Program-made: the position numbers and the translations under genes
Shown: one piece after another, positions 7,324 to 16,210 of the stretch
Layout: each line of letters opens with the position of its first letter
How positions within the stretch are numbered: position 1 is the stretch's first letter
Notes under the pieces: model-generated
What the model saw: only the letters and a program-made list of their open reading frames with translations
Database searches by the model: none
Told to the model about the DNA's origin: nothing
Assembly (NCBI GenBank): GCA_037441385.1
Contig: JBBISH010000121.1
Location: 1 to 18,652 of the forward strand
DNA from: Myxococcales bacterium
GTDB taxonomy: Bacteria > Myxococcota_A > UBA9042
Length of the DNA: 18,652 nt
Reading direction: 5' to 3'

Positions 7324-8232
7324 GTGAGCGACTCGCCCATCGACATCCTGCCGCCGGACCCGGACTGGCAGCCCACCAAGGGGCCGCCGCCGGTGACCTA
7401 CGACGTGGAGCCGCCCCCGCCAGGAGTGGTCAGCGACGTCTTTGAGGCGAAGCTACCGCCCGGCGCGCGGCGAACGCCACAGCCGCAAGTGCGCGCGCAG
7501 CGGGGCGATCCGGCGGTCTTCAAGAAGCTGCTGTCGCTCGCCTCGCGGGTGGCCGTGGTGGCGGTGGTCGGCCTGGTGCTGGTGTGGGCGCTGGAGCCGT
7601 TTGGGCCGAATTCGCTGCAGCACTCCGTGCTTTGGCTGCGCGATCAGCCCGTGCTCGGGCGGGTCCTGACGGTGCTGCTGGTGGCGGCCGGCGTGCCGTT
7701 CCTGGTGCCAGTCGGGCCGATGGCGATGATCCCCGCCTACGCTTGGGGTGCGACCGAGGGCGTGGTGCTGGGCCTCTGCGGCGCCGTGCTGGGCGGCACG
7801 CTCAACTACTGGGTCAGCAAGCGCTTCATCGGTCCACACCTGCTGGCGTGGCTCGACGGCAACGACGTGATCCGCTCGCTCTACTTGACCGTCGATCGCC
7901 GCGGCGCGCGAGTGCTGCTGGGCATGCGCATGAGCCCGGTGATGCCGTTTGGCCTGCTGTGCTACCTGTCCGGCCTGACGTCCATCGGCTGGGGAATGTT
8001 CGCGCTGGTGATGGCGGTGGGCGGCCTGCCTTGGACCACCGTCTACGCCGTAGCGGGCGCCATGCTGGGCGAAAGCCACCGCGCCATGGACCTGGGGGCC
8101 GCCGCCGATGGGCCGTACGCCGGCCCGCTGCGCTGGATCGGCCTGGGCGTGACGATTGCGCTGGCCACGTGGATCGGCCGGGTGGCGCGGCGCGACTTGC
8201 TCGACATGCGCGCGGGGAGAGGGGCGCCATGA
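7324..8232 (+). CDS. DedA superfamily TVP38/TMEM64 (VTT/SNARE-associated) membrane protein with Pro-rich N-terminus
   Basis: GAVLGGTLNYWVSK, RMSPVMPFGLLCYLSGLT and GGLPWT motifs with multiple hydrophobic segments. Confidence 0.85.
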   Translation: MSDSPIDILPPDPDWQPTKGPPPVTYDVEPPPPGVVSDVFEAKLPPGARRTPQPQVRAQRGDPAVFKKLLSLASRVAVVAVVGLVLVWALEPFGPNSLQHSVLWLRDQPVLGRVLTVLLVAAGVPFLVPVGPMAMIPAYAWGATEGVVLGLCGAVLGGTLNYWVSKRFIGPHLLAWLDGNDVIRSLYLTVDRRGARVLLGMRMSPVMPFGLLCYLSGLTSIGWGMFALVMAVGGLPWTTVYAVAGAMLGESHRAMDLGAAADGPYAGPLRWIGLGVTIALATWIGRVARRDLLDMRAGRGAP

Positions 8233-10937
8233 AAGCTCTCGCGTGGACCCTACTTGCGACTCTGGCGGCCTGCGGGAGCGATCCGGCGACCTCAACGGAC
8301 ATCCAGGTCCAAGACGCCACCGCCGACAGCGCGGGCCAGGACACGTTGGCCAGCGACGCGGCGCCCGCAGGCGGAAACGCGATGACGTTCGGGGCCTTTA
8401 CGGGCACCCTCGACAAAGCGGCCAAGACCCTGACCGTACAGCGGACCGGCGAGGCGAGCCCGCGCGCGGTGCTGGACCTGGGCGCCCTGCGCTTTGGCCG
8501 GGTGGCGGCCTTCGATGCAAAGTACAACTACGATCCCGCCAACTTGCCCGGCAAAGCGCCCGCTGGTCTGAGCTGGTGCAGCGTGGTCGGTATCGCCCCG
8601 ATCCCGGAACAGCCGCCCACGGGCGGTTCGAAGCTGGCTGGGACGTTGTGGCAGCTGGACACCCAAGATGCGGCGGGCGCGCCCTGCCCGGCTTGGCGGC
8701 TGCAGTGGGCCAGCCAGGACGGCGTGGGCTTCCGCCTGCACCTGCAGCCCCTGGATGGCAAGCTCGGCGACGCGTGGGCCCAGGATCAGGGCGATCAGCC
8801 GTTTATCTACACCGAGTTCGCCCACCGTGCCCCGGCCGGCGAAGGCTACTACGGCCTGGGCGAGTTCTTTGACACCCCACAACACCGCGGCAAGGTGCGC
8901 AGCCTGCAGCTTCAGGGGCAATTCGACCTGGACGGTTCGAGCAACGAGGCCCACGTGCGCCTGCCGCTCCTAGTGGGCACCCAGGGCTGGGGCTGGTTCG
9001 CCATGACCCGCCGGCCGGGCAAAGTCGACGTGGCCGCCACCGACAAAGCCAAGGTGATCGCAACCTTCCAAGAGGTGGACCTGAACCTGTACCTGCTGCT
9101 AGCCGACGATCCGCTGGATGTGGTCGGCCGCTACTGGAAGCTGACCGGCTCGCCGCAGCTGCCGGCGCCCTGGGCCTTGGGCGGGCTCCTCTGGCGCGAC
9201 GAGAACAAGGACCAGGCCGAAGTGCTGCAAGACGCTGCGGATCTGCGCATGCACGACCTGGCGATCTCGGGCCTGTGGATCGACCGGCCCTACGACACCG
9301 CGGTGAACGATTTTGGCTTCGAGCCCGGCATGTTCCCCAACCCCAAGGCGATGATCGACCAGCTCCACACCCAAGGGCTGCGGCTGGGGCTGTGGTCCAC
9401 GCCATACTTGGACCCAGGCACTGGCGGCAAGCCCAAGGCCAAGCTGGCCGACGAGGCCAAGTCAAAGGATTATTTTGTCCACGGTCAGGGCGCGTGGTCG
9501 TCCATCCTCAAGTGGGGGCCGCCGATCGACTTTACCAACCCGGCCGCCAACACCTTCTGGCGCGGACTGGTCAAGAAATACACGGACCTGGGCATCGAAG
9601 GCTTCAAGCTGGACTACGGCGAGGACATCGTGCTGGGCCTGCTGACCGTGCGGATTCCCTGGACTTTCGCCGACGGCAGCGACGAGCGCACCATGCACCG
9701 CGGCTTCGAGCTGGGCTACCATGCCGCTTATGCCGACAACCTGCCGAAACTCAACGGACTCTCTGGCGGCGGCTGGATCCTGGCGCGCAACTCGACCTGG
9801 GGCGACCAGACCAAGACCTCGATGATCTGGCCCGGTGACCTGTGCTCAGGCTGGGTGAAGCACGGCGAGTGCTCGCCCGGAAAAACCATCTGTCACGCCG
9901 GGGGCTTGCCCGCTTCGGTCAGCGCGGCCATCTCGCTGCCCACGGCCGGGTTCCCGCTGTTTGGCGCCGACACGGGCGGCTACCGCCACGGCCGCGCGCC
10001 CAAGGAGCTGTTCCTGCGCTGGCTGCAACATACGGCGCTCACCGGGGTTTTGCAGATCGGCGGCGGCTCGAACCACCACCCGTGGCTGGCGGAAAAGCTG
10101 GACAACGACCTGACCCCCGGCTCGCCCTTCGACGCGGAGACCCTGGACGTGTCGCGTACCCTGATTCGCCTGCACGCGCGCCTCTTTCCGCTGCTCTGGA
10201 CCGAACTGCAAAGGACCCAGGGCCTCGACCCGCGCGGAGTGGGTCCGGTGCGGGCGCTGGGGCTGCAGTACCCGAAACTTGCAGGTGATCCGGGCCTGCA
10301 GGCGCACGAAGCCGACCAGTGGCTGCTGGGGCCGGACCTGATGGTGGCGCCCGTGATCACGGCGGAATTGCAGCGCGAGGTGTGGTTCCCGCCCGGGCTT
10401 TGGCGCGATTGGTTCGACGGCTCGCTGCACGACGGCGGCACGGCCGGCAAGCTGGAGAAGGTGGAGGCGTCGATCGCCAAACTGCCCCTGTACTTGCGAG
10501 TGGGCGGGGTGGTGCCGCTGCTGCGGCCGACCATCGACACGCTGGCGCCCAGCAACGACTCAGCGATCGAGAGTTTTGCCAACGATCCCGGGTTGCTGTG
10601 GGTGCGTGCGGCATGGAGCCCCAAGTGGTTCGACGGTGTCACCTATCTATTCGACGGCACCATGGTCGGATGGGAGAACTCCGCGCACCAAACGTTCATT
10701 CTTGGCTCTGGCGGTACCAGCTTTACCAAAGGCGCGGTGTGGGAAATCCTCGATTTTCCCAAGGCACCGAGCAAGGTTGCCATCTACTTGGGGCAGGAGT
10801 TGGTGGCGGCCCAGAGCGTTGAAGCGGTTGCGGCGTGTCAGGACCCGTGCTGGGCCTACGACGCCGCCTCGCAACGACTACTTCTGCGTGATCTCCACAA
10901 TCACGATAAGGACTTCATAGTGGTCGAATGGGAATGA
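8229..10937 (+). CDS. Glycoside hydrolase family 31 lipoprotein (alpha-glucosidase/xylosidase-like), 902 aa
   Basis: ATGA overlap with the upstream gene and lipobox LAA-C. Motifs YYGLGE, LTGSPQLPAPWALG, FPNPKAMI, IDFTNP, nucleophile GFKLDYGE, acid/base WPGD, GADTGGY and LGPDLMVAPV. Confidence 0.92.
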   Translation: MKALAWTLLATLAACGSDPATSTDIQVQDATADSAGQDTLASDAAPAGGNAMTFGAFTGTLDKAAKTLTVQRTGEASPRAVLDLGALRFGRVAAFDAKYNYDPANLPGKAPAGLSWCSVVGIAPIPEQPPTGGSKLAGTLWQLDTQDAAGAPCPAWRLQWASQDGVGFRLHLQPLDGKLGDAWAQDQGDQPFIYTEFAHRAPAGEGYYGLGEFFDTPQHRGKVRSLQLQGQFDLDGSSNEAHVRLPLLVGTQGWGWFAMTRRPGKVDVAATDKAKVIATFQEVDLNLYLLLADDPLDVVGRYWKLTGSPQLPAPWALGGLLWRDENKDQAEVLQDAADLRMHDLAISGLWIDRPYDTAVNDFGFEPGMFPNPKAMIDQLHTQGLRLGLWSTPYLDPGTGGKPKAKLADEAKSKDYFVHGQGAWSSILKWGPPIDFTNPAANTFWRGLVKKYTDLGIEGFKLDYGEDIVLGLLTVRIPWTFADGSDERTMHRGFELGYHAAYADNLPKLNGLSGGGWILARNSTWGDQTKTSMIWPGDLCSGWVKHGECSPGKTICHAGGLPASVSAAISLPTAGFPLFGADTGGYRHGRAPKELFLRWLQHTALTGVLQIGGGSNHHPWLAEKLDNDLTPGSPFDAETLDVSRTLIRLHARLFPLLWTELQRTQGLDPRGVGPVRALGLQYPKLAGDPGLQAHEADQWLLGPDLMVAPVITAELQREVWFPPGLWRDWFDGSLHDGGTAGKLEKVEASIAKLPLYLRVGGVVPLLRPTIDTLAPSNDSAIESFANDPGLLWVRAAWSPKWFDGVTYLFDGTMVGWENSAHQTFILGSGGTSFTKGAVWEILDFPKAPSKVAIYLGQELVAAQSVEAVAACQDPCWAYDAASQRLLLRDLHNHDKDFIVVEWE

Positions 10938-11614
10938 CCCTCCCGCCCCAAACCATTGCGATCGTCGGCTGCGGCGGCCTGGGCGTGCCGGCAGCCTGGA
11001 CTCTAGCCCTGGCGGGCGCGCCGCGGCTGGTGCTGATCGACGACGACGTGGTGGAAGTCAGCAACCTGCATCGGCAAATCCTGTACGATACCGCCGTGCT
11101 GGGCCAGCCCAAGCCCCTGGCGCTGCGCGCGGCCCTGCAGGCACGTGTGCCCAACCTGGACATTCAAGTCCGCCAAGGCCGCTTGAACGCGGACACGGTG
11201 GTCGACCTGCTGGCCGGCTGCGACGCCGTGCTCGAGGGCAGCGACGACGCGACGAGCAAGTTTTTGGTGAACGATTGGGCGGTTGCGCAACCGCGCCGCC
11301 GCCATGCCAGCATCGCAGCTGCCATCGGTCGCCGCGGTCAATGGATGACCGTGTCGCCCGAAAGTGCCTGCTACCGCTGCCTGTTCGAGGAGCCGCCGCC
11401 GCCCGAACACTTGGCCACTTGCCAGGTCGCCGGCGTGATCGGCCCGGTGGTGGGCCAGGTGGGCGCCCTGGCGGCCCGCTCGCTGTGGTCCGCGCTGAAT
11501 GGGCAACCCGACATGGCCCGCGGCGCCCTGGTTCGCCTGTCGCCGCGCGGACTTCTGCGCACTCCGGTGCAGGTGGCCGGCGACTGCCGCTGCGGGCAGG
11601 GGGCGCCATGCTAG
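10934..11614 (+). CDS. ThiF/MoeB/HesA family E1-like adenylyltransferase lacking the N-terminal RYxRQ helix
   Basis: Motifs GCGGLG, DDDVVEVSNLHRQ, EGSDD, CYRC, TCQVAGVIGP and C-terminal CRC. ATG overlaps the GH31 stop (ATGA). Confidence 0.92.
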   Translation: MTLPPQTIAIVGCGGLGVPAAWTLALAGAPRLVLIDDDVVEVSNLHRQILYDTAVLGQPKPLALRAALQARVPNLDIQVRQGRLNADTVVDLLAGCDAVLEGSDDATSKFLVNDWAVAQPRRRHASIAAAIGRRGQWMTVSPESACYRCLFEEPPPPEHLATCQVAGVIGPVVGQVGALAARSLWSALNGQPDMARGALVRLSPRGLLRTPVQVAGDCRCGQGAPC

Positions 11615-12516
11615 TCCGCGATCCCGCCACCCTGTACGAGCGCCACGGCCGGCAACTGCTGGTGACGGGAGTGCAATTCGACGGTCAGCAGGCCCTGTTC
11701 GCCTTGGGGGCCGCCATCGCCTGCGACCAGTCGCCGCTGGCCCAAGTTGCGGCCGAGGTATGTGCGCGCTATCTGGTGGGCGCCGGTCTGGGCCGGATCC
11801 TAGCGCCCAGCCGCATCGCGCAGGCGTTGCCGGCCCTCGATCCCGAGCTGCAACTGGCCACGAGTCCTAGAGATTTGCGCGAACCCTGCCTGCACCTGCA
11901 CCTGCGCGCGCGGCCCTTTGGTGTCGAGGCCGAGCTGGCTTGGATGGGCGACTGCCCACGGCATTCCCTCTTGCTTTGGCATAGTTCTGCGGGGCTTGCC
12001 GACGCCGTGGCGCTTGGCGGCGCAGTGGCGCAGCTGGTACTGGACGACGTGCTGGGCCTGCAGCCGCTGCCGGCGGTGGTGCGCTTCGATCTAGACGACC
12101 CACAACAACCTGTGCGGCAACAGGAACTGCCGACAAATCCGTTGTCGGACGTCGGTGCCGAAGTGTGGCAGCAGATCGAGGCCAACTGCGCTGCTGCCTA
12201 TCCGCACGAGGCGGCGGGGTTGCTGGTGCAAGCTGCGGACGGCGCAATCCAGTGTGTCGTCGGCGAGGCGGGCCAGCGCGACGGGTTCGTCCTGGCCGCA
12301 GAACATTTTGCCCAAGCAAATCGGCACTTGCTCGCCATCTGGCACAGCCACCCGGATGGCAGCGCCCAGCTGAGCGCCGTCGACCAGGCCTGGGCCCGCA
12401 CAGGCAGCAACCCCGCGCCCGTACACATCGTTTTGGCCACCGCCGGCCCGCGCGTCGCGGCGCGGCAAATCCACGTGTGGAGCACCCTGGCGAACCGCTA
12501 CCTGCCCGCGACCTGA
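11608..12516 (+). CDS. Fusion of a degenerate (pseudo) ThiF/MoeB domain and a JAB/MPN+ (JAMM) metalloprotease
   Basis: The N-terminus YERHGRQLL...GQQAL...ARYLVGAGLGRI resembles the MoeB N-terminus but has no GxGGxG or SNLxRQ. The C-terminus has YPHEAAGLL and WHSHPDGSAQLSAVD, a complete E...HxH-x7-S-x2-D motif. It overlaps the upstream gene by 7 nt. Confidence 0.85.
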   Translation: MLVRDPATLYERHGRQLLVTGVQFDGQQALFALGAAIACDQSPLAQVAAEVCARYLVGAGLGRILAPSRIAQALPALDPELQLATSPRDLREPCLHLHLRARPFGVEAELAWMGDCPRHSLLLWHSSAGLADAVALGGAVAQLVLDDVLGLQPLPAVVRFDLDDPQQPVRQQELPTNPLSDVGAEVWQQIEANCAAAYPHEAAGLLVQAADGAIQCVVGEAGQRDGFVLAAEHFAQANRHLLAIWHSHPDGSAQLSAVDQAWARTGSNPAPVHIVLATAGPRVAARQIHVWSTLANRYLPAT

Positions 12517-12527
12517 GGAGACCGCCC

Positions 12528-12806
12528 ATGCAACAGCGCAATATCCAAATGCATGTCTTTGTCTCGGGCGAGGTGCAGGGCGTGTCGTACCGCGCCTACT
12601 GCCGGCAGCAGGCGCTGCGCCTCAAGCTCAAGGGTTGGGTGCGCAACCTGGACGACGGCCGCGTGGAAGCGGTGTTCCACGGCCCCGAGGCCAATGTGCA
12701 GGCCATGGTCGCGTGGTGCCACCAAGGTTCGATGCGCGCCAACGTGACCGACGTGCAGGCGAGCAAGATGCCGCTGGAAGCGTTCTTGGACTTCTCGGTC
12801 CGCTGA
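12528..12806 (+). CDS. acyP: Acylphosphatase
   Basis: Motifs VSGEVQGVSYR and GWVRNLDDGRVE; RBS GAGGAG at 12515-12520; 92 aa. Confidence 0.95.
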   Translation: MQQRNIQMHVFVSGEVQGVSYRAYCRQQALRLKLKGWVRNLDDGRVEAVFHGPEANVQAMVAWCHQGSMRANVTDVQASKMPLEAFLDFSVR

Positions 12807-14761: not shown

Positions 14762-15850
14762 TCAGCCGCCGATGGTGCTCATGGCCTCGCGGGTCGCGTG
14801 GGCCGCGTCAAAGCGGTGCGCGTCGACTTTGCCCAGCAGCGCCGCCGAGATGGCCTGCTGCACGTCATCGGGCGCGGCCCCCGCGCGCAGCATGTCGCGA
14901 AGCGAGAGCGCCCCTTGGGTCGACAGACACTCGCGCAGCGTGCCGGTCGAACTCAGCCGCACGCGGTTGCAATCGCGGCAAAACTTCTCGCTCACGGCTG
15001 CGATCAGCCCCAGCTTCAGGGTCCGTTCCGGCTGCTGCCGATGCCGCCCCAGCCAGCGCACCGCGGGGCCGCCACCTGGCTCACTGCGTTGGGTATCCAT
15101 CTGCAAATCCCAAGTCTTGCCCAGCAGATCGCGCACCTCGGCGATAGGCAGCCAGGTCTCGGGGCCCCACTGCTCGTCGGTGCCGATCGGCATGTACTCG
15201 ATGCAGCGCAGGGTGTAGCCGCGGTCGCTGCAGAACTCTGCCAGCGGCGGCAAGCCGGTTTCGCTTAGGCCGCGCAACACCACCGCGTTGATCTTGGTGT
15301 GGACAAACCCGGCGCGATCGGCAGCGTCCAGGCCCCGCAACACCGCGTGCAGGCTGCCCTGCCGCGTCAACGCAGCAAAGGTGCCCGGGTCCAGCGTGTC
15401 GATCGACACGTTCAAGCGCTGCAGGCCGGCCTGCTGCAACGGCTCGGCCAGCTCGGCCAGCAGGTGGCCGTTGGTGGTCATGGCCAAATCGGTCAGCTCG
15501 GGGATCGCAGCCAGCCGCGCCACCAGTTCGGGCAAGTCGCGCCGCAACAACGGCTCGCCGCCAGTCAAGCGCAGTTTGCGGACTCCCAACGCCACAAAAG
15601 CCCGCACCAACGTTTCGATTTCGTCAAAGGTCAGCAACTCGTCGCGCGGCAGCCAAGGTAAGCCCTCAGCGGGCATGCAGTAGGTGCAGCGGTAGTTGCA
15701 GCGGTCGGTCAGCGAGACACGCAGGTACTCGACTTTGCGGTGCTGCAGGTCGACCAGCGCAAAGGGGCTGCGCAGCGCGGGGGTGGCTCCCCCCAAGCTG
15801 AGCGCGGCCACGGGCGCCGCCGAAGTGGGGCAGCTGCTGGGTAGGGTCAC
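14762..15850 (-). CDS. moaA: GTP 3',8-cyclase (molybdenum cofactor biosynthesis radical SAM enzyme)
   Basis: YLRVSLTDRCNYRCTYC (CxxxCxxC), RLTGGEP, TTNG, FCRDCNRVRL...LREC and C-terminal MSTIGG. The GTG start overlaps the upstream TGA. Confidence 0.97.
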   Translation of the reverse strand: MTLPSSCPTSAAPVAALSLGGATPALRSPFALVDLQHRKVEYLRVSLTDRCNYRCTYCMPAEGLPWLPRDELLTFDEIETLVRAFVALGVRKLRLTGGEPLLRRDLPELVARLAAIPELTDLAMTTNGHLLAELAEPLQQAGLQRLNVSIDTLDPGTFAALTRQGSLHAVLRGLDAADRAGFVHTKINAVVLRGLSETGLPPLAEFCSDRGYTLRCIEYMPIGTDEQWGPETWLPIAEVRDLLGKTWDLQMDTQRSEPGGGPAVRWLGRHRQQPERTLKLGLIAAVSEKFCRDCNRVRLSSTGTLRECLSTQGALSLRDMLRAGAAPDDVQQAISAALLGKVDAHRFDAAHATREAMSTIGG

Positions 15851-16101
15851 GCAGTCGCCTTGCCCGTTTCGCTGCGTGCCACTTCGCCGCGGGCTCCCAG
15901 CAGGACCACTTCGGCCAACGCGTTGTGGGCGGCGTGCTCTTCGGCGTAACGGGCGATGACCTTGGGCTGACCGCCGGCCACTTCAGCCAGCAGCGCCAAG
16001 CGCGCCTCGTGGTCCAACTTGCCGCCGCTGTGCTTTTGCACCACGCGCTCCAGTCGCTCGCCGATGGCCTTGGGAAACTCGATCAACCGCAATTCGAACA
16101 T
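15847..16101 (-). CDS. Small protein resembling a stand-alone ribosomal L7/L12 C-terminal-like domain (84 aa)
   Basis: RBS GAGGTGG precedes ATG 16101 and there is a GTGA overlap with moaA. The pattern FELRL...RVVQKHSG..L.HEA...PKVI....EHAA......GARGEV recalls the L7/L12 CTD; the fold call is tentative. Confidence 0.6.
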   Translation of the reverse strand: MFELRLIEFPKAIGERLERVVQKHSGGKLDHEARLALLAEVAGGQPKVIARYAEEHAAHNALAEVVLLGARGEVARSETGKATA

Positions 16102-16210
16102 GAACCACCTCTGCCGCCTACCGCCAGCGATCATGGGCCGGGCGCCGCCACAGCGTCAACGTGCTCCAGCCAAACAGGCAATTCGTCACGCGTATGCCCG
16201 CGCCGCACGG

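Follow-up and report, generated by a model that had tools for sequence, protein, structure and literature searches.

An 18,652-nucleotide (nt) stretch of DNA from a Myxococcales bacterium (assembly GCA_037441385.1, contig JBBISH010000121.1; the whole stretch is hereafter called the window) contains two overlapping genes, here termed A and B, whose products are probably the paired subunits of one E1-like enzyme, asymmetric yet pseudo-symmetric in build and derived from a ThiF/MoeB-type homodimer through reciprocal losses; a probability of about 0.6 is assigned to this reading. Gene A encodes an E1 that retains all adenylation motifs and lacks the N-terminal RYxRQ segment. Gene B, by contrast, starts with a segment of the RYxRQ type, has lost the Gly loop and the SNLxRQ motif, and continues into an intact JAMM metalloprotease domain (Table 1). 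Hence two paralogous adenylation-fold subunits are encoded at the locus, and only A has a nucleotide site. The first-pass annotation of the window had described both genes in these terms and had interpreted them as an asymmetric E1; this interpretation is supported by the profile searches, structural models, predicted complex and gene linkage described below.

Gene A belongs to the ThiF family. Its Pfam ThiF match (PF00899; expectation value (E) 2.7e-50, 171.2 bits vs. a cut-off of 28.1) spans profile positions 21–219 of 238 and leaves positions 1–20 unmatched. Residues 8–192 of A align with residues 29–211 of Escherichia coli ThiF (1zud; E 5.3e-31), and the first block of this alignment is free of gaps, such that A residue n corresponds to ThiF residue n+21. 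ThiF residues 1–28, including the N-terminal RYxRQ helix with its Arg (ThiF R11, MoeB R14), have no counterpart in A. The motifs retained in A comprise GCGGLG (residues 14–19), SNLHRQ (45–50), CYRC (148–151), Cys165 and CRC (220–222). The nucleotide site is complete, consisting of the GCGGLG loop, R49 (equivalent to ThiF R70), K62 and the Mg-binding Asp D106, and both the Zn site (C148-x-x-C151 and C220-x-C222) and the crossover-loop Cys (C165) are present. All of these positions (G14-C-G-G-L-G19, R49, K62, D106, C148/C151, C165 and C220/C222) are conserved in an alignment of 54 A sequences, in which those of the nucleotide site are invariant. A holds the ThiF domain only, with neither a catalytic-Cys domain nor a ubiquitin-fold domain, and it scores below the NCBIfam equivalog cut-offs for MoeB (PRK08762; 147.9 vs. 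449), ThiF (TIGR02356; 138.7 vs. 275) and UbaA (125.2 vs. 450).

The missing N-terminus is shared by the relatives of A, of which the best 120 of 1424 matches were examined. Among the 100 closest (P0012–P0111; at least 52% identity), the Gly loop is recognisable in 97, the other three giving no loop match, and it is preceded by 2–51 residues; an RYxRQ-like motif upstream of the loop is found in none of these 97. Since all 97 close relatives lack the motif, the truncation is a clade-wide trait and no isolated accident. Six canonical proteins, with 38 residues, ERYSRQ among them, before the loop, occur among the 20 more distant matches that follow. Other distant ThiF-family proteins with 39–54% identity to A (P0112–P0119, P0122, P0123, P0126, P0128 and P0129) also lack the RYxRQ N-terminus, and one RYxRQ-less distant ThiF-family protein is named from Candidatus Binatia. 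A mis-called start of gene A, which runs from an ATG at 10934 to a stop at 11612–11614 (an alternative ATG at 10928 would give 228 amino acids (aa)), was considered and rejected: the reading frame opens only at 10910, the preceding glycoside hydrolase (GH31) gene ends at 10935–10937, and the whole clade is truncated.

The N-terminal domain of B reads MLVRDPATLYERHGRQLL..GQQAL..ARYLVGAGLGRI and escapes routine annotation. Pfam finds nothing in residues 1–181, even at E ≤ 10, and a phmmer search of the PDB with the whole B sequence returned only a chance match to a PTS transporter (E 0.079). As this single-sequence search found no E1, a profile was needed, and one was built from 20 B N-domains (alignment A3). 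It matches Uba4 (E 4.5e-5), E. coli ThiF (E 1e-4) and MoeB (E 0.015) in the PDB, where the sole non-E1 match is a weak one to an engineered protein (E 0.034). Profile positions 9–82 align with ThiF residues 6–74. In this alignment, Y10-E-R12-H-G-R15-Q16 of B falls on F6-M-R8-Y-S-R11-Q12 of ThiF and ARYLVGAGLG falls on ALYLAGAGVG, while SNLxRQ has disappeared from its position and other residues stand in place of the GxGxxG loop. A comparison of the B N-domain with six canonical ThiF proteins by hhalign gives E 1.3e-5 and a probability of 80.6 over columns 1–67. Furthermore, an AlphaFold2 (AF2) model of B, built from an alignment of 24 homologues, reaches a predicted local distance difference test score (pLDDT) of 86.8 and a predicted template modelling score (pTM) of 0.82. 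Foldseek searches of the PDB with this model place ThiF at the top (E 1.2e-5), followed by Uba4, UBA5, MoeB and PaaA, and also match the inactive E1 subunits APPBP1 (1r4m_A and others) and SAE1 (6xog_A and others). The N-domain of B is thus ThiF-like in both fold and sequence, as had been anticipated, and derives from the E1 adenylation fold.

In this domain, residues R4, D5, P6, R12, G14, R15, Q16, L17, L18, Q27, L30, V57, G58, A59, G60 and G62 are invariant in 24 of 24 full-length B homologues, and conservation within the pseudo-E1 domain is strictest in the Arg-finger-like helix. What the domain retains, in the absence of a GxGxxG loop and of SNLxRQ, is its N-terminal helix together with the helices that face A in the predicted complex. 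By its sequence, the B N-domain is a diverged second copy which covers the Rossmann-start E1 positions of A, and not the piece that A is missing. Both genes are under purifying selection: in comparisons of the window with its relatives L001 and L002, the ratio of nonsynonymous to synonymous substitution rates (dN/dS, Nei-Gojobori) is 0.14–0.16 for A and 0.18–0.32 for the B N-domain, figures that are rough estimates at synonymous distances (dS) of 0.5–0.9.

Table 1. Coordinates of genes A and B and of their principal features in the window.
Feature	Position	Strand	Remarks
Gene A, N-terminally truncated ThiF/MoeB-type E1	10934..11614	+	Predicted active adenylation subunit, 226 aa
Overlap of A stop and B start, 7 nt (ATGCTAG)	11608..11614	+	Typical of translational coupling
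Gene B, pseudo-E1 domain fused to JAMM metalloprotease	11608..12516	+	302 aa
B residues 1–175, degenerate E1 adenylation-fold domain	11608..12132	+	Profile, hhalign, Foldseek
B residues 12–16, RHGRQ	11641..11655	+	R15 aligned to the 'Arg finger' ThiF Arg11 / MoeB Arg14
B residues 184–279, JAMM/MPN+ (Prok-JAB) domain	12157..12444	+	Complete E..HxH(x7)SxxD motif

A physical association of the two proteins is predicted by co-folding of A (54-row alignment) with full-length B (24-row alignment) in three runs alongside three controls. The interface score ipSAE is 0.91 in each of the three A+B runs, far above the best control at 0.02; solved complexes attain the mark applied to this score in 116 of 157 cases and mismatched pairs in 2 of 215, counts which are rough because the alignments were those of the analysis itself. 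At least 95% of the contacts coincide between the runs, with partner pLDDT values of at least 84. On A, the predicted interface involves residues 21–30, 44–56 (around SNLHRQ), 134–135 and 166–211; on B, it involves residues 8, 11–16, 18–22, 47–60, 73–79, 128–145 and 151–171, and no residue of the JAB domain is listed. The tightest pairs lie between A helix 173–183 and B helix 134–142, and between A helix 21–28 and B 133–135 as well as B 51, the latter paired with A24. In the model, this pairing of helices matches the pseudo-twofold pattern of E1 dimers. The ERHGRQ segment of B (residues 11–16) and L47-H48-R49 of A (R49 being the equivalent of ThiF R70) are both found within the predicted interface, a shared position that would be expected in this ATP-free model if R15 of B reaches the nucleotide site of A.

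The linkage of A and B was followed by a pattern scan with the B alignment over 185,579 species genomes, which yielded 19 loci in addition to the window; an earlier word-based homologue search for B had found 8 proteins only, the query included. Sixteen of the 19 loci are labelled as Myxococcota, Myxococcales or Deltaproteobacteria metagenome-assembled genomes (MAGs), one as 'bacterium' and two as enterobacterial. The latter two (L009 and L019, labelled Klebsiella pneumoniae and Enterobacteriaceae MAGs) look wrongly labelled, since their B proteins nest among those of Myxococcota and the order of genes for tryptophanyl-tRNA synthetase (TrpRS), VTT, A and B is shared. The closest relatives of the window are contigs of uncultured Myxococcota. 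As proposed for the window, a truncated E1 gene and a pseudo-E1-JAB gene are direct neighbours in 13 of the 19 loci, where tblastn finds an A-type gene directly before B, interrupted by the end of the contig in the case of L007. At loci where the two adjoin, their overlap amounts to 7–8 nt (window, L001, L002, L016, L017 and L019), or they are separated by +1 nt (L010). The wider synteny, TrpRS-VTT/DedA-(GH31)-A-(Ubl)-B, in which Ubl denotes a ubiquitin-like protein, gives no clue to a pathway.

Thirteen of the 19 loci contain a Ubl gene of 92–95 aa, which either separates A from B or directly precedes B, at a distance of -4 to +9 nt to the B start. These Ubls match Pfam ThiS (1.8e-12), NCBIfam SAMP1 (59–60 bits vs. 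a cut-off of 60) and moaD_arch (36–38 bits), and in all 13 the Gly-Gly is followed by additional residues, the endings being GGC in eight, GGR in two, and GGAA, GGAHG and GGG in one each. Overall, the order A-Ubl-B occurs seven times, Ubl-B six times and A-B six times, such that an A or Ubl gene abuts B in 19 of 19 loci. A maximum-likelihood (ML) tree of 24 B proteins unites the six Ubl-B loci in a single clade (support 99/98) nested among the A-Ubl-B loci; the absence of A beside B can therefore be regarded as one event, and the exceptions to A-B adjacency as one clade. The A-B layout occurs in three lineages of the same tree, and the window groups with L001 and L002.

Pseudo-E1 modules are not restricted to JAMM-fused proteins. 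When the B N-domain profile was run with HMMER against 1.84 billion representative proteins, 73 of them matched at E ≤ 1e-3, including 20 with E ≤ 1e-10. Among these 20 best matches, 15 are 302–392 aa in length, and the five scanned all carry a JAB domain; one (P0137) is longer and likewise has a JAB domain; four are shorter (100–259 aa), including P0140 and P0141 (~195 aa), which consist of the N-domain alone and have no Pfam match. The weaker matches are mostly proteins of 110–130 aa (P0150, P0152–P0162 and others; alignment A6), here called mini pseudo-E1 proteins. Their layout comprises RY(A/G/S)RQ, GQ, a degenerate loop, (A)xYL(A/V)GAGVG, LNP(E/D)V and a C-terminal helix. The one mini pseudo-E1 scanned with Pfam (P0150, 114 aa) gave no match, and NCBIfam matched only the first ~50 positions of the MoeB and ThiF models in P0150 and P0153. 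Both Arg residues recur without exception in the mini pseudo-E1 alignment (30 of 30 rows, among them a canonical ThiF fragment). In turn, a profile of the mini pseudo-E1 proteins matches all 20 B genes, from the window and the 19 loci (E from 5e-20 to 6e-11). One mini pseudo-E1 was modelled with AF2 (pLDDT 89.9), and the model matches Uba4 with E 7e-5 and a root-mean-square deviation of 2.4 Å over 88 columns, and by Foldseek also ThiF, SAE1, MoeB and APPBP1. Compared by language-model features, the nearest ESM Atlas clusters to the mini pseudo-E1 are 'hypothetical proteins' of 109–125 aa, commonest in Myxococcota (scores 0.94–0.96), and those nearest to the B N-domain are hypothetical proteins of 190–201 aa from Binatota (0.85–0.87), which is a weak lead. 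The mini pseudo-E1 proteins are probably stand-alone inactive partners for truncated ThiF-type enzymes, and the A/B-type split may extend beyond Myxococcota. In tblastn searches of plasmids, the B N-domain had no match, and P0153 matched only canonical ThiF N-termini.

Gene fusions add to this picture. P0182 (451 aa) combines a truncated ThiF (profile positions 21–237), a TusA domain and a C-terminal RYARQ pseudo-E1 module (residues 337–407). Because this protein fuses both elements, it provides a Rosetta-stone argument that truncated E1s and pseudo-E1 modules work together; as a whole, it reads like a circularly rearranged E1 with an inserted sulfurtransferase. In P0203 (285 aa), the mini module is fused to the JAB subtype of B, and the name given to this protein by JGI is CysO-S-L-cysteine hydrolase. 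When the mini-module profile was run against longer proteins, the best 120 of 1225 matches were mostly canonical ThiF or MoeB proteins, and P0203 was the only new fusion among them.

The C-terminal domain of B is a Prok-JAB domain (PF14464; E 1e-9, 38.7 bits vs. a cut-off of 25). The JAMM residues of the window protein are E201, H246-S-H248, S256 and D259, and E201, both His residues, S256 and D259 recur in all 24 B homologues. Foldseek pairs this half of the model with the JAB protein 2kcq and the Rpn11 homologue 6fju. NCBIfam gives no match for the JAB domain of the window, and thus no Mec+ or desampylase equivalog match; the JAB domain of L009 weakly matches the family 'desampylase' (E 8e-4, 19.3 bits vs. 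a cut-off of 130). The dN/dS of the domain between the window and L001 or L002 (0.36–0.77) is higher than that of A or of the B N-domain. In addition, the window, L001 and L002 lack a segment of ~18–20 residues (PRTxRTAYKLNERxIAK..; columns ~308–325 of alignment A2) which is present in the other 21 homologues, while all catalytic JAMM residues are kept. In L018, a PAS-GGDEF diguanylate cyclase gene (9119–10423, +) begins at the stop of B, and P0137 (662 aa) consists of B, with its JAB domain, fused to PAS and GGDEF domains. This arrangement may reflect a link to cyclic di-GMP signalling in one lineage, or a read-through gene call.

The proposed mechanism builds on the known chemistry of E1 dimers. 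In the homodimers of ThiF and MoeB, each subunit extends an N-terminal Arg (R11 and R14, respectively) to the gamma-phosphate of the ATP bound by its partner; the corresponding Arg of canonical eukaryotic E1s, such as Arg57 of hUBA1, comes from the inactive domain (PMC13139853, PMC12355090). The trans-acting Arg finger and the eukaryotic asymmetric E1s to which the first-pass annotation had appealed agree with these accounts. The path to A and B would start from a duplicated E1 pair in which one subunit loses ATP binding. The N-terminal helix of its partner would then have nothing left to complement and could be lost, giving rise to A, and the dead subunit (the B N-domain or, in its minimal form, a mini pseudo-E1) would need only its N-terminal helix and the interface. 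With the losses being reciprocal, an A:B dimer would have one complete active site, located in A. A retains the full adenylation machinery (the ATP loop, Arg49, Lys62, Asp106, the crossover-loop Cys and the Zn site), and B retains the dimer-interface helices and the R-x-G-R-Q helix, from which R15 (equivalent to ThiF R11 and MoeB R14) would be delivered to the ATP of A.

The JAMM domain on the inactive subunit may remove the one or more residues that extend beyond the Gly-Gly of a CysO/SAMP1/MoaD-type Ubl sulfur carrier, a substrate which we infer from the related loci, the window having no Ubl gene of its own. It may also hydrolyse carrier-Cys adducts as Mec+ does: since 8 of the 13 Ubls end in GG-Cys and thereby mimic a CysO-Cys adduct, recycling of such adducts is conceivable. 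Maturation or recycling of the Ubl and its ATP-dependent activation would then take place on one complex.

Several observations weigh against this proposal. The window lacks a Ubl gene, a tblastn search with the L009 Ubl giving no match at E ≤ 10, and a Ubl gene is also missing near B in L001, L002, L010, L016, L017 and L019. Conversely, six of the 19 loci have no A gene near B; four of these (L005, L006, L012 and L013) were checked over 8 kb on each side, and the other two (L004 and L014) are short contigs. The pair formed by R15 and the nucleotide site of A is absent from the list of closest pairs in the ATP-free model. The co-folding result itself covers A+B only and expresses no preference for B over a second copy of A, and as solved E1 homo- and heterodimers exist, it may reflect likeness to these. 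The deleted JAB segment together with the dN/dS of 0.36–0.77 suggests that the protease role may be weakening in the clade of the window. Moreover, the sequences come almost entirely from uncultured genomes and metagenome-derived collections, and the literature found contains no experiments on any of them.

A further challenge comes from the enzymology of the Arg finger. MoeB and ThiF are reported to catalyse their reactions without a strict need for their Arg fingers (R14 and R11, respectively), and E. coli TcdA has none (PMC13139853). A might therefore work alone, such that its pairing with B need not be obligate, and with all its other catalytic residues retained it could be self-sufficient as a homodimer or monomer, the E1-derived domain of B serving simply to dock the JAMM protease to A. 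Pure docking would fit the predicted A:B interface equally well. Several patterns speak against a tether of this kind, however. R12 and R15 are invariant in all 24 B proteins, and the two corresponding Arg residues are equally invariant in the mini pseudo-E1 rows, although the mini proteins carry no protease to be docked. Precisely the segment kept by B is the one missing throughout the A clade, and P0182 rejoins the module to a truncated E1 without any JAB domain. Docking alone is thus considered an unlikely explanation, though one to be taken seriously.

A second alternative accepts the heterodimer and concerns its function only, and is as such compatible with the A:B dimer. The enzyme might conjugate the Ubl to proteins, as in archaeal sampylation of the UbaA/SAMP1/HvJAMM1 type, with the JAMM domain acting as a deconjugase outside of any sulfur-carrier pathway. 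The score of the related-locus Ubls on SAMP1, which lies at the family cut-off, the weak 'desampylase' match of the L009 JAB domain and the retention of the crossover-loop Cys165 in A all point in this direction. SAMP1 also works as a sulfur carrier, however. In the neighbourhoods scanned, no E2 or other conjugation factor was seen, and none of the 24 open reading frames (ORFs) of the window scanned belongs to the E2/UBC family. The GG-Cys endings of most Ubls mimic the CysO-Cys adduct that is hydrolysed by Mec+ (PMC3227635), and the related JAB protein P0203 carries the name of such a hydrolase. A conjugating output consequently appears improbable. With respect to the sulfur-carrier pathway, the ORFs scanned around A, B and the Ubl did not include a CysM.

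It could also be argued that the pseudo-E1 domain binds the Ubl and presents it to the JAMM site without pairing with A at all. E1-like folds are used elsewhere as peptide- or Ubl-binding modules, and the adjacency of Ubl and B without A in 6 of 19 loci would be in line with such a role in substrate recognition. These six loci constitute one clade, however, and the conserved elements of the B N-domain are the N-terminal helix and the helices predicted to touch A. A+B co-folding at 0.91 vs. 0.02 for the best control likewise speaks for pairing, and the clade of the window maintains the A-B overlap with no Ubl gene nearby. Substrate recognition in place of pairing is accordingly regarded as very improbable. 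Finally, the notion that a single E1 gene was broken, frameshifted or mis-assembled to yield A and B, suggested by overlapping frames that each hold part of an E1, can be dismissed, given that the two-gene layout recurs in 13 independent contigs, that ~100 A-type protein clusters are truncated alike, that both genes are under purifying selection, and that the B N-domain repeats the Rossmann-start positions of A instead of supplying its missing part.

The surroundings of the two genes in the window, in which G+C ranges from 64 to 71%, contribute some further observations. Upstream lies the GH31 glycoside hydrolase gene (8229–10937, +), whose product has a lipoprotein-like signal (MKALAWTLLATLAACGS). 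It ends in ATGA, overlapping the start of A at 10934, and is an odd operon partner for an E1. GH31 is also directly upstream of A in L010 and L015, and it takes the corresponding place in L001 and L002. An acylphosphatase gene (12528–12806, +) follows 11 nt past the stop of B and is likewise found behind B in L002 (2481–2759). About 2.2 kb downstream, moaA (TIGR02666, 352 bits; 14762–15850, -) is encoded, as it is in L002; no moaD, moaE or moeB was seen in the window. A 95-aa ORF (15847–16134, -), which overlaps the moaA start by 4 nt, was considered as a Ubl and rejected, having no family match and ending in ..GKATA.

Individual elements of the proposed enzyme have precedents. A shares with E. 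coli ThiF and MoeB the fold, the ATP loop, the SNLxRQ Arg, the Mg-binding Asp, the Zn site and the crossover-loop Cys. ThiF and MoeB, in contrast, are symmetric homodimers with two active sites between which the Arg is exchanged (PMC12355090, PMC13139853), whereas here the losses are split over two genes. A can be seen as a ThiF-family member minus one defining element, and the pair would work like a heteromeric E1. In this respect it resembles APPBP1-UBA3 (NEDD8) and SAE1-SAE2 (SUMO), in which active and inactive adenylation-fold subunits are encoded by separate genes; Foldseek pairs both B and the mini pseudo-E1 model with APPBP1 and SAE1 chains. Unlike the eukaryotic enzymes, A and B come without a catalytic-Cys (SCCH) domain, a ubiquitin-fold domain and an E2, and for this reason they are not placed in the eukaryotic E1 families. 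Their inactive part is furthermore only 175 aa long and fused to a JAMM domain, and the active subunit measures 226 aa.

Among bacterial systems, the Bil antiviral operons come close, as BilD contains inactive and active adenylation domains and the JAB protein BilC pre-processes the Ubl C-terminus (PMC10557695). In BilD, however, both domains and a CYS domain reside in one chain which works with an E2, and the JAB protein is separate (PMC10557695). According to the same preprint, all other known bacterial E1-like proteins are homodimers. The MoeZR-CysO-CysM-Mec+ pathway of Mycobacterium tuberculosis likewise combines an E1-like activator, the carrier CysO and a JAMM hydrolase that cuts after Gly-Gly (PMC3227635), and the related-locus Ubls are of the MoaD/SAMP1 type and mostly end in GG-Cys. 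In that pathway, the E1 (MoeZR) has its full length and an added rhodanese domain, and the JAMM hydrolase Mec+ is a protein on its own. Yeast Tcd1-Tcd2 (ct6A) has been described, on the basis of a model and mutagenesis, as a heterodimer of the ThiF fold whose catalytically deficient subunit donates the Arg finger to the active one (PMC13139853). This pair differs in being eukaryotic, in acting on tRNA, in having two full-length subunits and in that the donated Arg is not essential (PMC13139853).

A precedent for the set of genes is operon type 4b of Iyer, Burroughs and Aravind (2006), which joins ThiS/MoaD, JAB and E1-like genes and for which Anaeromyxobacter is listed (PMC1779556). The E1 of this type is fused to rhodanese and JAB domains (PMC1779556). 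Its hallmark, a Gly-Gly Ubl gene beside E1 and JAB, is absent from the window and present in 13 of the 19 related loci. In the available portions of PMC1779556, the terms 'truncated' and 'N-terminal' are absent and 'inactive' refers to E2-like domains, such that neither a truncated E1 nor an E1 domain devoid of activity is mentioned there. Operons of Ubl, JAB and E1 genes, the chemistry of CysO, MoeZR and Mec+, and E1 asymmetry in eukaryotes and in single-chain BilD are thus already known. In the literature searched, outside of which Burroughs et al. (2009) lies, neither a two-gene bacterial E1 composed of a truncated ThiF and a pseudo-E1 nor a family of mini pseudo-E1 proteins was found.

A broader reading, given roughly even odds, is that Myxococcota and possibly Binatota independently evolved heteromeric E1s by reciprocal decay of homodimers. 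The active subunit would have shed its N-terminal helix, which unannotated inactive partners would provide in four forms: the mini proteins of 110–130 aa, the ~195-aa stand-alone proteins, the JAMM-fused proteins represented by gene B, and the module fused onto a truncated E1-TusA protein. In the JAMM-fused form, Ubl processing would be coupled to activation.

The asymmetry of active and inactive E1 subunits is a hallmark of the activation of ubiquitin, NEDD8 and SUMO in eukaryotes, and bacterial sulfur-carrier E1s have been described as symmetric homodimers (PMC12355090, PMC10557695). If the proposal holds, A and B would represent a second, two-gene bacterial route to an E1 asymmetry thought to be limited to eukaryotes and Bil-type defence. 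The pairing of A and B is overlooked by their present names, which are ThiF or MoeB for A and 'Mov34/MPN/PAD-1 family protein' for B. As a tractable system, the pair would allow the contributions of the trans-acting Arg finger and of the inactive subunit to be studied, along with the evolution of a homodimer into an obligate heterodimer. A family of unannotated small proteins, the mini pseudo-E1s, would gain a role, and with the protease riding on the inactive subunit, the maturation of the Ubl would be coupled to its activation.

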